From Escherichia coli (lineage in GTDB: Bacteria > Pseudomonadota > Gammaproteobacteria > Enterobacterales > Enterobacteriaceae): DNA of 64,000 nt. Position numbers and translations under genes: made by a program. The stretch is taken from assembly GCF_045037415.1 (NCBI RefSeq), contig NZ_CP173438.1; one strand, 5' to 3'. Position 1 is the first letter of the stretch. The number at the start of each line of letters is the position of its first letter. Below, one piece after another: positions 13,285 through 41,255 of the stretch. The notes beneath the pieces were generated by a model, which searched no databases, was not told where the DNA came from, and was given only the letters and a program-made list of their open reading frames with translations.

Positions 13285-13316
13285 GGGAGAGCGTAGTCTC
13301 TCCCTTTTAATTTTTC
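13285..13316 (+). terminator. rho-independent terminator of ybgS
   Basis: GGGAGAG-cgtagt-CTCTCCC followed by TTTTAATTTTT. Confidence 0.7.
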
Positions 13317-13376: not shown

Positions 13377-14318
13377 ATGGCGCACTCACACTCACACACT
13401 TCCTCACACCTGCCAGAAGATAATAATGCTCGTCGCTTGTTGTATGCTTTCGGCGTGACTGCCGGGTTTATGCTCGTAGAAGTCATTGGTGGTTTTCTTT
13501 CCGGTTCTCTGGCATTGCTGGCCGATGCGGGTCATATGTTGACCGATACTGCCGCCCTGCTTTTCGCCCTACTCGCAGTGCAATTTTCCCGTCGTCCTCC
13601 CACCATTCGCCACACTTTCGGTTGGCTAAGATTGACCACGCTCGCGGCGTTTGTGAATGCCATCGCCCTGGTGGTGATTACTATTTTGATTGTCTGGGAG
13701 GCGATAGAACGCTTCCGCACTCCGCGTCCGGTCGAGGGCGGCATGATGATGGCAATTGCCGTGGCTGGGCTGCTGGCAAATATACTTTCTTTCTGGTTAC
13801 TTCATCACGGCAGCGAAGAGAAAAACCTCAACGTGCGAGCAGCGGCACTGCATGTGCTCGGGGACCTGCTGGGTTCGGTTGGGGCTATTATTGCCGCGTT
13901 GATTATTATCTGGACCGGCTGGACACCTGCTGACCCCATTCTCTCAATACTGGTGTCGCTTCTGGTTCTGCGTAGCGCGTGGCGACTGTTGAAAGATAGT
14001 GTGAATGAATTACTTGAAGGTGCACCGGTATCGCTGGATATCGCTGAACTGAAGCGTCGCTTGTGCCGGGAAATCCCGGAAGTCCGCAATGTGCACCATG
14101 TGCATGTATGGATGGTAGGCGAGAAGCCGGTGATGACGCTGCATGTGCAGGTGATCCCGCCACACGATCACGATGCCTTGTTGGATCAGATCCAACACTA
14201 CCTGATGGATCACTATCAGATTGAGCACGCCACCATTCAGATGGAATATCAACCTTGTCATGGGCCAGACTGCCACCTGAATAGAGGGGTGTCTGGCCAT
14301 TCACATCATCATCATTAA
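13377..14318 (+). CDS. zitB: cation-diffusion-facilitator Zn(II) efflux transporter
   Basis: 313 aa; His-rich N and C termini; CDF transmembrane core. Confidence 0.95.
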
Positions 14319-15034
14319 TGGGACAGCGCACGTGAACCTCTTTCGCGTGCGCTTTTGATCCACATCCGGCTGCCGTTGAGGGCAATAAAGGTCAGGATGA
14401 TGTACTCCAGAGACATGGCGTAAACGCCCTGAAGTGCAAAAATAACGACGCTAATCACGTTAATAATCACCCACAACAGCCAGTTTTCCACATACTTACG
14501 TGTCATCAGAATCATTGCCACGATAGATAACACCATCATGCATGAATCCCAGAACGGGAAAGCGTCCGGCTGTAGTTCAGGCATCGCAACCTGTAATCCT
14601 AATGCTTGCATGATCATGACTGCCACGCGGGTCAAAAATGCAAACACAGGATTGATAAATACCGTCATTAGACCAATCGAAACAACGCAAACCGCCAGCC
14701 AGCTTAGCGCCTTCGGCAATGGCAACCAGCGAATTTTCAACTCCGCCTCGTTCTGACTGGTTTGTCGCGACCACGCATACCAGCCGTAAATATTCGCGGC
14801 AAAGAAAAACACCTGTAATAACAGGCTGGCATACAGCTGAATCTGAAAGAAAATAATGCCAAACAAGGTGACGTTGATCAGGCCAAAGAAGTAGTTACTG
14901 ATCTTCTCCAGACTGGCAAGGCCAATACACAGCAACCCGGCGATCGTGCCTACCGCTTCGATCCATGAGAGATCATAACCGCCTGCCCCTATTGGTATAT
15001 GTACCAGGATATTCTGCACACTAAAAAAATCCAT
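14315..15034 (-). CDS. pnuC: nicotinamide riboside transporter
   Basis: 239 aa polytopic membrane protein downstream of nadA. Confidence 0.95.
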
Positions 15035-15071: not shown

Positions 15072-16115
15072 TTATCCACGTAGTGTAGCCGCAAAATCCA
15101 GCATACGATTGAGCGGCACCAGCGCCCTCTCTCGCAGCCTTTCATCAACATAAACCTCGTGATTGCTTCCTTCCAGTTCTAATGCCTCTGCGATGGCCTG
15201 AAGGCCATTCATGGCCATCCACGGACAATGCGCGCAGCTGCGACAGGTTGCGCCCTCACCCGCGGTTGGTGCTTCCAGTAACTCTTTATCTGGCACCGCC
15301 TGCTGCATTTTGTAGAAAATGCCCCGATCGGTTGCCACGATAAGCCGCTGATGTTGCAATGTTTTCGCAGCAGCGATCAGTTGACTGGTGGAACCGACCG
15401 CATCCGCCATCTCTACAATAGCTTGCGGTGATTCTGGATGCACCAGTATGGCAGCATCCGGGTATTCTTCTTGCAAGCGGGTTAACGCCTGAGTCTTAAA
15501 CTCATCATGCACAATGCAGGCACCCTGCCAGCATAAAATGTCTGCGCCCGTCTGTTTTTGCACGTAACGCCCCAGATGTTTGTCAGGTGCCCAGATGATT
15601 TTTTCACCCAAACTATCCAGATGATCAATAAGTTCGACGGCAATGCTTGAAGTTACCACCCAATCTGCGCGCGCTTTTACCGCAGCAGAAGTGTTGGCGT
15701 AGACGACGACAGTACGATCGGGATGGGCATCGCAAAATGCGTTAAATTCTTCAACAGGGCAGCCGAGATCCAGTGAACATTCAGCCTGAAGTGTCGGCAT
15801 CAGAATTGTTTTTTCCGGACTGAGAATTTTGGCGGTTTCTCCCATAAATCTCACCCCAGCGACTAGCAACGTAGAAGCGGGATGCTTTGCACCGAAGCGC
15901 GCCATTTCCAGAGAATCAGAAATACAGCCACCGGTTTCTTCTGCCAGTTGTTGAATTTCGGGATCGGTATAGTAGTGGGCAACCATCACCGCATTACGTT
16001 CTTTTAGTAGACGTTTTATCTTCTCGCGGTAATTCGCTTTTTCATCAATGCTTAACGGCGTCGGCTTCGGGGGGAAAGGATAAATCGCCGTGTCTGGATC
16101 AAACATCACGCTCAT
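15072..16115 (-). CDS. nadA: quinolinate synthase
   Basis: 347 aa starting [18 protein letters not shown]. Confidence 0.97.
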
Positions 16116-16392: not shown

Positions 16393-16468
16393 TGGTGGGT
16401 CGTGCAGGATTCGAACCTGCGACCAATTGATTAAAAGTCAACTGCTCTACCAACTGAGCTAACGACCC
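16393..16468 (-). tRNA. lysQ: tRNA-Lys(UUU)
   Basis: 76-nt exact match to recalled E. coli tRNA-Lys incl. CCA; symbol by position in operon. Confidence 0.93.
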
Positions 16469-16501
16469 CTTGCGGGATTATGCTGCTTTAATCATTCAGG
16501 A

Positions 16502-16577
16502 TGGTGGGTCGTGCAGGATTCGAACCTGCGACCAATTGATTAAAAGTCAACTGCTCTACCAACTGAGCTAACGACCC
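16502..16577 (-). tRNA. lysZ: tRNA-Lys(UUU)
   Basis: identical 76-nt tRNA-Lys copy. Confidence 0.93.
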
Positions 16578-16625
16578 ATACGGGTGTTACCTGAAAGATT
16601 TCTACTCGGAACCAATGTTTAAAAT

Positions 16626-16701
16626 TGGTGGGTCGTGCAGGATTCGAACCTGCGACCAATTGATTAAAAGTCAACTGCTCTACCAACTGAGCTAACGACC
16701 C
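16626..16701 (-). tRNA. lysY: tRNA-Lys(UUU)
   Basis: identical 76-nt tRNA-Lys copy. Confidence 0.93.
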
Positions 16702-16704
16702 GAG

Positions 16705-16780
16705 TGGTGGGTGATGACGGGATCGAACCGCCGACCCCCTCCTTGTAAGGGAGGTGCTCTCCCAGCTGAGCTAATCACCC
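16705..16780 (-). tRNA. valZ: tRNA-Val(UAC)
   Basis: 76-nt match to recalled E. coli tRNA-Val(UAC) incl. CCA; 3-nt spacer to next tRNA. Confidence 0.9.
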
Positions 16781-16831
16781 GATACTGCGCTGGATACTAC
16801 AAACTACTTCCACCGAACCCACCGTAATCAG

Positions 16832-16907
16832 TGGTGGGTCGTGCAGGATTCGAACCTGCGACCAATTGATTAAAAGTCAACTGCTCTACCAACTGAGCTA
16901 ACGACCC
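16832..16907 (-). tRNA. lysW: tRNA-Lys(UUU)
   Basis: identical 76-nt tRNA-Lys copy. Confidence 0.93.
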
Positions 16908-16909
16908 GG

Positions 16910-16985
16910 TGGTGGGTGATGACGGGATCGAACCGCCGACCCCCTCCTTGTAAGGGAGGTGCTCTCCCAGCTGAGCTAATCACCC
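16910..16985 (-). tRNA. valT: tRNA-Val(UAC)
   Basis: 76-nt tRNA-Val copy; 2-nt spacer to lysW. Confidence 0.9.
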
Positions 16986-17020
16986 GATACTACGCTGGAT
17001 ACTACAACTAACTATGTTAG

Positions 17021-17096
17021 TGGTGGGTCGTGCAGGATTCGAACCTGCGACCAATTGATTAAAAGTCAACTGCTCTACCAACTGAGCTAACGACCC
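17021..17096 (-). tRNA. lysT: tRNA-Lys(UUU)
   Basis: identical 76-nt tRNA-Lys copy; first gene of the operon. Confidence 0.93.
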
Positions 17097-17260: not shown

Positions 17261-18052
17261 TTACATCGCGTTCAGACGTTTTTGCGCCTGTTTAGCGCCA
17301 TCAGTACCAGGGTATTTACTGATAACCTGCTGGTATACGGCTTTCGCTTTTGCGGTGTCACCTTTGTCCTGCATGATGACGCCGACTTTAAACATCGCAT
17401 CTGCAGCCTTCGGTGACTTCGGATAGTTTTTCACTACCGAAGCAAAATAATACGCCGCATCATCTTTTTTACCCTTGTTGTAGTTTAACTGACCCAGCCA
17501 ATAATTGGCGTTTGGCAGGTAAGTTGAATCAGGGTAATTTTTGATGAAATTCTGAAATGCCACCATTGCGTCATCCTGGCGGGATTTATCCTGCACCAGC
17601 GCAATAGCTGCATTGTAATCCGTGTTTGCATCACCGCTTTTCACCGGCGCGCCAGCATTCGAAGTACCAGCATCAGCTGTCGGCGTCGTTGATGCCACCA
17701 CACCGCTTTGATCGCCGCTGGTTGATTGCGCCGCTGCACCACCGCTGCTGAGGCTGTCGATCTGCAACAGGATCTGCTTTTGCCGCTCCACGACCTGATT
17801 CAGTTGATACTGATTTTCCTGAATCTGACCACGCAGGGAATCAATATCGGATTGATTATCAGAGAGTTGTTGCTGGAGTTGGGTTAAAAGCTGGCTGTGA
17901 GCATTAGAAATACGCTCAAGTTGAGTGACGCGGTCTTCGACCGAGCCTGAGCCGACACTACTGATTGGTGCCTGAGCAAAAGCGGCCCAGGGGGCCGCTA
18001 TACCAACCAGTAACGACAGACTCAATAGTTGATGTCTGAAGTTACTGCTCAT
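17261..18052 (-). CDS. cpoB: cell division coordinator CpoB (TPR periplasmic protein)
   Basis: 263 aa; signal peptide, coiled-coil, C-terminal TPR; last gene of tol-pal cluster. Confidence 0.95.
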   Translation of the reverse strand: MSSNFRHQLLSLSLLVGIAAPWAAFAQAPISSVGSGSVEDRVTQLERISNAHSQLLTQLQQQLSDNQSDIDSLRGQIQENQYQLNQVVERQKQILLQIDSLSSGGAAAQSTSGDQSGVVASTTPTADAGTSNAGAPVKSGDANTDYNAAIALVQDKSRQDDAMVAFQNFIKNYPDSTYLPNANYWLGQLNYNKGKKDDAAYYFASVVKNYPKSPKAADAMFKVGVIMQDKGDTAKAKAVYQQVISKYPGTDGAKQAQKRLNAM

Positions 18053-18061
18053 GCAATTCTC

Positions 18062-18607
<546 letters not shown>

Positions 18608-41068: not shown

Positions 41069-41255
41069 CTGCATTTCTTTTGTAGGCCGGATAAGGCATT
41101 CACGCCGCATCCGGCGCTGTTTGCCTGATGCGACGCTTGCGCGTCTTATCAGGCCTACGGTTTCTGCATTTCTTTTGTAGGCCGGATAAGGCGTTCACGC
41201 CGCATCCGGCACTGGTTGCCTGATGCGACGCTTGTGCGTCTTATCAGGCCTACGG
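41069..41255. repeat. BIME: two tandem ~95-bp copies, each a REP pair
   Basis: 41069-41163 and 41164-41258 near-identical; each holds GCCGGATAAGGCGTTCACGCCGCATCCGGC and GCCTGATGCGACGCTTGCGCGTCTTATCAGGCCTACGG. Confidence 0.85.

Follow-up and report, generated by a model that had tools for sequence, protein, structure and literature searches.

Within a 64,000-nucleotide (nt) stretch of the Escherichia coli genome (contig NZ_CP173438.1 of RefSeq assembly GCF_045037415.1, hereafter the window), the genes zitB, for a zinc exporter, and pnuC, for a nicotinamide riboside transporter, converge tail to tail and share a TTAA that holds both of their stop codons. We found that this overlap is conserved, and not accidental, and that two hairpins flank it: hairpin A just past the zitB stop, inside pnuC, and hairpin B just past the pnuC stop, inside zitB. 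Judged by comparison of sequences across species, both hairpins are under constraint at the nucleotide level. We consider it probable that zitB and pnuC are an ordinary convergent pair in which the 3' ends of the messenger RNAs (mRNAs) are defined or protected by hairpins placed in the coding tail of the opposite gene.

The shared stop and its conservation

The original prediction had placed the stop codons of both genes in a common TTAA, and the sequence together with the list of open reading frames (ORFs) bears this out: positions 14310-14319 read catcatTAAt, with TTAA at 14315-14318 (Table 1). ZitB aligns with the NCBIfam model NF002923 over positions 1-313 of 313 (647 bits), while PnuC aligns with NF011926 over positions 1-238 of 239 (465 bits) and also matches TIGR01528 (249 bits). 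Because both proteins match NCBIfam models from end to end, the two stops are the true ends of real genes, and both genes are annotated by RefSeq in K-12 and in thousands of other strains. The junction is thus a convergent 4-nt stop-to-stop overlap between two genuine genes that run towards each other on opposite strands, with a tetramer, TTAA, of the YTAR type. In the RefSeq annotation of K-12 MG1655, pnuC occupies 783166..783885 (+) and zitB 783882..784823 (-), which gives the identical 4-nt overlap. The gene order in the window is aroG, ybgS, zitB, then, facing zitB, pnuC, nadA and a Lys/Val transfer RNA (tRNA) cluster; the orientation in K-12 is the opposite one. pnuC lies 37 nt downstream of nadA (15072-16115, -), and we take it to be the last gene of a nadA-pnuC operon under the control of NadR.

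Table 1. Features at the zitB-pnuC junction, in window coordinates
Feature	Position	Strand	Description	Basis
zitB	13377..14318	+	Coding sequence, CDF-family zinc exporter, 313 amino acids; stop TAA 14316-14318	ORF list, NF002923, RefSeq
pnuC	14315..15034	-	Coding sequence, nicotinamide riboside transporter, 239 amino acids; stop TAA read 14317->14315	ORF list, NF011926, TIGR01528, RefSeq
TTAA tetramer	14315..14318	no strand	Common to both stops, 4-nt tail-to-tail overlap	Sequence
Hairpin A	14325..14353	+	12-base-pair (bp) GC-rich stem, 14325-14336 with 14342-14353, 5-nt loop; candidate zitB terminator or 3'-end protective stem-loop	
Hairpin B	14263..14298	-	8-bp basal stem, 14291-14298 with 14263-14270, plus upper stem; candidate pnuC 3'-end protective or termination stem-loop	
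C-rich, G-poor stretch	14419..14536	+ (zitB sense)	Candidate Rho-utilisation (rut) region, antisense to pnuC	C/G 2.3-2.6, G 10-13%
C>G stretch	13977..14154	- (pnuC sense)	Weaker candidate rut region, antisense to zitB	C/G 1.25-2.1, C 31-37%

Among complete E. coli genomes, the 1.8-kilobase region was found in 5425 of 5426 and the 70-nt junction in 5424. We then surveyed other species with a PnuC scan limited to one genome per species, which gave 80 Enterobacteriaceae loci from genera that include Escherichia, Citrobacter, Salmonella, Klebsiella, Enterobacter, Kosakonia, Kluyvera, Raoultella and Buttiauxella. In all 80 species zitB converges on pnuC. The 4-nt overlap is kept in 65 of them, and all four possible tetramers are used (TTAA in 39 species, TTAG in 10, CTAA in 8 and CTAG in 8). 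Elsewhere the stops abut with no spacer (10 species), overlap by 7 nt (three species) or 9 nt (one species), or are separated by a 3-nt spacer (one species). A spacer of more than 3 nt was present in none of the 80, and no species has space for an intergenic terminator.

Some E. coli strains carry natural disruptions of this gene pair. In strain AVS0193 an IS1 element is inserted in pnuC (disrupted strains are among the related records NZ_CP124455.1, NC_017631.1 and NZ_CP021202.1), and in ABU 83972 zitB is annotated as a pseudogene without its N-terminus, with the junction intact. The match in strain Z1002 covers just 39 of the 70 junction bases. Besides, two copies of the zitB-pnuC region were found on plasmids. 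The disrupted strains are possible natural tests of whether the loss of one partner affects the other.

Hairpins in the coding tails

The original prediction also held that no intergenic terminator separates the two genes. This is right in that the intergenic space is nil, but two conserved stem-loops lie just past the stops, in the coding tail of the partner, and the lack of an intergenic terminator does not imply a lack of 3'-end signals. Hairpins A and B were located by folding the sequence. They are two distinct structures, each in coding sequence, about 27 nt apart and on either side of the TTAA, and a 108-nt stretch folds into both of them on either strand (z-scores of -5.3 and -4.8). 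The comparisons with shuffled sequences given below involve related species, so the shuffle counts are not formal probabilities.

Hairpin A starts 6 nt after the zitB stop and lies within pnuC codons 228-237. The window's allele has a folding free energy (dG) of -19.8 kcal/mol, with a z-score of -4.98 and none of 200 shuffles as stable. The hairpin is seen in all 82 aligned sequences and in each of the 80 species, with 88% of the cells paired. Its geometry sets third codon positions against third codon positions, and at its base two synonymous pairs, Ser228/Ala236 and Ala229/Arg235, keep complementary bases in 94% of 66 species. As a null, we used codon pairs of the same class elsewhere in pnuC; these are paired at around 40%, and 94% was reached by 0 of 95 and 0 of 57. 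The third-position entropy of Ala236 is the lowest among 19 conserved Ala codons, and that of Ala229 the third lowest. Regarding the strand, the zitB-sense form is the more stable one in 64 of 80 distinct sequences, with means of -19.3 and -16.6 kcal/mol for the zitB and the pnuC sense, respectively, and the number of G-U pairs is 86 in the zitB sense versus 42 in the pnuC sense. The greater strength in the zitB sense suggests that hairpin A acts in the zitB transcript.

Hairpin B starts 16 nt after the pnuC stop, within zitB codons 296-308 (GPDCH...VSGH). In its basal stem GGCCAGAC pairs with GUCUGGCC, and its dG is -20.2 kcal/mol (z-score of -3.03). Nearly all 80 species have a hairpin at this position, none of them with a U-tract. 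When we supplied the structure by hand on an 82-sequence alignment, the covariation score was 0.264, compared with 0.146 +/- 0.010 in shuffles (0 of 500 reach the observed value), and 10 pairs were changed on both sides (a number reached by 2 of 500 shuffles). Slid controls, in which the partner was moved by 1-3 columns, gave scores of 0.03-0.13. The three most compensatory pairs each link two third codon positions: columns 37/82 join Gly and Gly (GC 34, CG 16, GU 8, UG 8, AU 3), columns 40/79 Ser and Pro (GC 56, AU 7), and columns 43/76 Val or His with Asp or Glu. The changes at 37/82 and 40/79 are possible without altering either protein. The stem is also kept where the ZitB tails diverge in sequence and length, GPECRLNMTHAGH being one example; this comparison takes in only the rows whose frame is fixed by the GP[DE]C...HHHH motif, with the codon positions of the pairs derived by hand. 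The basal stem is paired at 85% in the pnuC sense versus 78.5% in the zitB sense, and G-U pairs number 63 and 19, respectively.

A stable stem-loop without a U-tract follows closely on the stop in all alleles for hairpin B and in most alleles and species for hairpin A. The tail after hairpin A is UGUUAAUCC or UGUUGAUCC in most species, and UUUU occurs in just 12 of 80 distinct sequences. K-12 and 68 of the 80 distinct sequences have a UGUU-type tail without a U-tract, CUGUUGAU or CUGUUAAU. The window belongs to the minority: its tail is UUUUGAU, with four U at 14353-14356, the first of which can pair with A14325. Its allele has a T for G at plus-strand position 14354, which changes pnuC codon 227 from AAC to AAA (N227K), giving CGCUUUUGAU; on the opposite strand the same change turns the tail of hairpin A from CUGUUGAU into CUUUUGAU. 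The K-12 allele has the G, which pairs back to extend the stem to 14 bp (-23.3 kcal/mol, z-score of -6.4) and leaves a tail of UGAUCC. Exact matches to the window's junction allele occur in 578 of 5426 E. coli genomes, JJ1886 and an O25b:H4 strain among them, and from this sequence match the window probably comes from the sequence type 131 (ST131)/B2 lineage. In this ST131-like allele hairpin A looks like an intrinsic terminator, unlike in most other strains.

Hairpin A was also considered as a terminator of pnuC, and rejected: it lies upstream of the pnuC stop, in the path of translating ribosomes that would open it, and in the pnuC sense it is followed by GUCCCAUUAAUG.

Transcript 3' ends and rival explanations

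Since each transcript must carry its own stop codon, an overlap between the 3' ends of the zitB and pnuC mRNAs is unavoidable, and on this point the argument of the original prediction stands. Termination upstream of the overlap, which it had named as the contrary outcome, would give mRNAs without a stop codon. Transcript overlap is likewise supported by published data, in which pnuC-zitB is named among the 165 convergent excludons of MG1655 (ExcludonFinder, Sanmartin et al. 2025, PMC12288877). The criterion for this list is overlapping coverage by RNA sequencing (RNA-seq) in at least 50% of 58 MG1655 samples, and 146 of the 165 have predicted overlapping terminators, inside the transcription unit of the neighbour (PMC12288877). 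Such a listing follows almost automatically for any expressed pair with overlapping coding sequences, and antagonism is not what it measures. If the ends lie just past the hairpins, the mature zitB and pnuC mRNAs would be complementary over ~14263-14356, approximately 94 nt. With the hairpins in place the overlap probably has limits of this order and does not run on indefinitely.

Overlaps of this kind have been described before. E. coli has 58 convergent overlaps, with a modal length of 4 nt and the signature TTAA/CTAA/TTAG/CTAG; the terminators of convergently overlapping genes must sit in the coding sequence of the partner, and 21 of the 58 have a predicted rho-independent terminator there (Lillo and Krakauer 2007, PMC2174442). 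The TTAA overlap is hence already known, from the reference annotation, as a member of a well-described class and from the published excludon list. The details added here are the two hairpins with constrained synonymous sites in the partners' tails and the lineage-specific U-tract allele.

In the ordinary convergent pair that we favour, zitB and the last gene of the nadA-pnuC unit would converge on the TTAA in an arrangement that was presumably fixed in ancient times. Because there is no spacer, the 3'-end signals would lie in the C-terminal codons of the other gene, with hairpin A, just past the zitB stop, and hairpin B, just past the pnuC stop, each serving the mRNA of its own upstream gene. 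On that mRNA the hairpin would stay folded, because it lies beyond the stop codon and out of the ribosomes' reach; translating ribosomes would open a hairpin that lay within the coding sequence of the same gene. Rho-dependent transcripts of E. coli end just after stable stem-loops without U-tracts, which protect the RNA from polynucleotide phosphorylase (PNPase) and RNase II and have rut sites immediately downstream (Dar and Sorek 2018, PMC6061677). Hairpins free of a U-tract would fit such stem-loops, where Rho-terminated transcripts end after trimming by exonucleases, and the rut-like C-rich stretches of Table 1, called from composition alone in 78-nt windows, lie downstream. From these features we infer a role of the hairpins at the 3' ends, an involvement of Rho and the length of the overlap. 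In our view the overlap results mainly from the tight packing of the genes and is not a dedicated switch; regulatory interference linking the two transport functions, zinc efflux and nicotinamide riboside uptake, is a slim possibility.

One could argue that the hairpins have no RNA function at all, being by-products of the PnuC and ZitB tail peptides or of GC-rich codon usage, and that other sites determine the 3' ends, with diffuse Rho termination far into the antisense of the partner as one example. Several results do weigh against a 3'-end role. Hairpin A falls within a conserved peptide stretch, and on strict measures it covaries little: its both-side changes are reached by 98 of 500 shuffles and its pair types by 21 of 500, and its alternating GC still pairs at 67-68% after a 2-column shift of the partner. 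Hairpin B has a weak strand preference, with 45 of 81 sequences favouring the pnuC sense by folding energy (p = 0.03), and in the window itself the zitB-sense form of hairpin B is the more stable one (-24.6 versus -20.2 kcal/mol). RNAalifold returned no consensus structure for the 82-sequence hairpin B alignment, because the ZitB tails differ by insertions and deletions. Neither hairpin was called by the consensus promoter and terminator scan, which also reported no hairpin with a following T-run within zitB on the minus strand, and Rfam at gathering thresholds gave no match at the junction. Mapped 3' ends for zitB or pnuC were present in none of the searchable Adams 2021 Term-seq, TERMITe, SMRT-Cappable-seq and TRS tables. 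Hairpins without a function would, however, leave unexplained why the basal third positions of stem A are paired at 94% versus ~40%, with no null pair as high, and why synonymous entropy is unusually low in the stem A codons. They would also not account for a hairpin B whose pairing is kept through double third-position changes and divergent ZitB tails, nor for two folds far outside the shuffle distributions (z-scores of -3.0 to -6.4). We regard this explanation as unlikely.

Another explanation, in line with the original prediction, is a true excludon, in which convergent transcription would lead to mutual antagonism of zitB and nadA-pnuC, with RNA polymerase collisions, RNase III cleavage of the ~94-bp duplex, or both as the cause, and would link zinc efflux to the uptake of a nicotinamide adenine dinucleotide (NAD) precursor. 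The presence of pnuC-zitB in the RNA-seq-based list of MG1655 agrees with it, together with a tail-to-tail layout whose spacer of at most 3 nt is kept in all 80 species and the obligatory complementary stretch that follows from the hairpin positions. The ExcludonFinder call, however, needs just overlapping ends defined by coverage, which is nearly automatic here and leaves antagonism unmeasured. Just two papers were found to mention both genes, neither of them a study of the pair, and we found no functional link and no data on double-stranded RNA, RNase III or expression coupling for zitB-pnuC. Moreover, the absence of both 3' ends from the searchable Term-seq tables is consistent with low expression, and the frequency of collisions would scale with the product of two low firing rates. 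The conservation of the junction has a simpler explanation in mutual constraint, because either protein could be harmed by insertions or deletions there. A true excludon is, in our estimation, quite unlikely.

Collisions could also act on termination itself. For hundreds of convergent pairs of E. coli with terminators that are neither intrinsic nor Rho-dependent, a mechanism has been proposed in which stem-loops pause polymerases arriving from each side, and head-on and trailing collisions release them (bioRxiv 10.1101/2022.10.23.513370). The hairpins of zitB and pnuC do lie at a convergent boundary and are mostly without U-tracts, and the published model requires a stem-loop of the nascent RNA in the overlap and explains uniform 3' ends (bioRxiv 10.1101/2022.10.23.513370). 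The class described, though, has one overlapping terminator between the genes, and here there are two hairpins in coding sequence ~27 nt apart; the efficiency in the model rises with promoter firing, and zitB and pnuC appear to be weakly expressed. Bidirectional termination driven by collisions is thus very unlikely to be the explanation at this locus. Equally speculative is a further reading, in which the crossed hairpins would be dual-coding, the need to encode the stem-loop of the partner having acted on the last ~12 codons of PnuC and ZitB over hundreds of millions of years. The ~94-bp duplex would then bring about a real mutual exclusion of zitB and nadA-pnuC, and the U-tract created with N227K in the ST131 lineage would alter both zitB termination and the amount of antisense RNA reaching pnuC. 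We hold this scenario to be a long shot.

The one mapped 3' end found in the vicinity is that of ybgS, a 'primary' Term-seq end (Adams 2021) at K-12 784890/784891 (-), which corresponds to ~13309-13310 in the window. A terminator-like hairpin of ybgS at 13285-13304 (+), GGGAGAG...CTCTCCC followed by TTTTAATTTT, coincides with this published end, and the match confirms the mapping of window coordinates to K-12. The ybgS end lies 67-68 nt upstream of the zitB ORF, so near that zitB needs either its own promoter in the ~65 nt left or read-through; the promoter scan found no promoter in the ~65 nt between the ybgS end and zitB. Inside pnuC, the sense strand of the gene carries a terminator-like site at 14811-14826 (-), GCCTGTTATTACAGGT followed by GTTTTTCTTT. 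Its stem is weak, with 3 G-C pairs among 6, and the match is probably due to chance, as the terminator scan gave 9 sites versus 4.6 expected. Further away, the window contains a cluster of seven tRNAs at 16393-17096 (-), five Lys(UUU) and two Val(UAC) (ARAGORN), a CpoB/ybgF RNA thermometer at 18023-18161 (-; Rfam, 153.7 bits), and two adjacent naRNA4 copies (REP-type elements) at 41085-41155 and 41180-41250 (+; Rfam).

Comparison with known systems

As a discovery the locus is small, a tidy example of a known principle and no new kind of system. Its value is that of a clean and deeply conserved example of 3' stem-loops in the coding tail of the partner, where compensatory changes fall on third codon positions. 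The locus would make a small test case for the termination of tightly packed convergent genes, for the limits that RNA structure sets on codon choice, and for the effect of the UUUU versus the UGUU allele on termination.

The pair belongs exactly to the class of convergent 4-nt overlaps of Lillo and Krakauer (PMC2174442), with nothing essential that is different; what is added here is its conservation over 80 Enterobacteriaceae species with the use of all four tetramers. It is also a listed member of the MG1655 convergent excludons (PMC12288877). It differs in that the coding sequences themselves overlap and not the 3' untranslated regions alone, and, while mutually exclusive expression is the defining property of an excludon, the pair was listed from coverage.

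Regarding the hairpins, hairpin A resembles an intrinsic (Rho-independent) terminator in its GC-rich 12-bp stem, its 5-nt loop and its position directly downstream of zitB. It departs from one in that the U-tract is short, and absent in K-12, and in that the consensus scan did not call the site; hairpin B is without any U-tract. Both resemble the 3' stem-loops of Dar and Sorek (PMC6061677) in being stable, without a U-tract (in most alleles for hairpin A) and with C-rich stretches further downstream. Unlike those loops, they lie inside the coding sequence of a convergent partner, and the rut-like stretches begin 65-110 nt past the loops instead of immediately after them. Finally, zitB and pnuC share with the bidirectional terminators (Ju et al. 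2019; Wang et al., bioRxiv 10.1101/2022.10.23.513370) a convergent layout and stem-loops at the boundary that are unlike intrinsic terminators, but they have two separate hairpins embedded in coding sequence and not one shared intergenic terminator.

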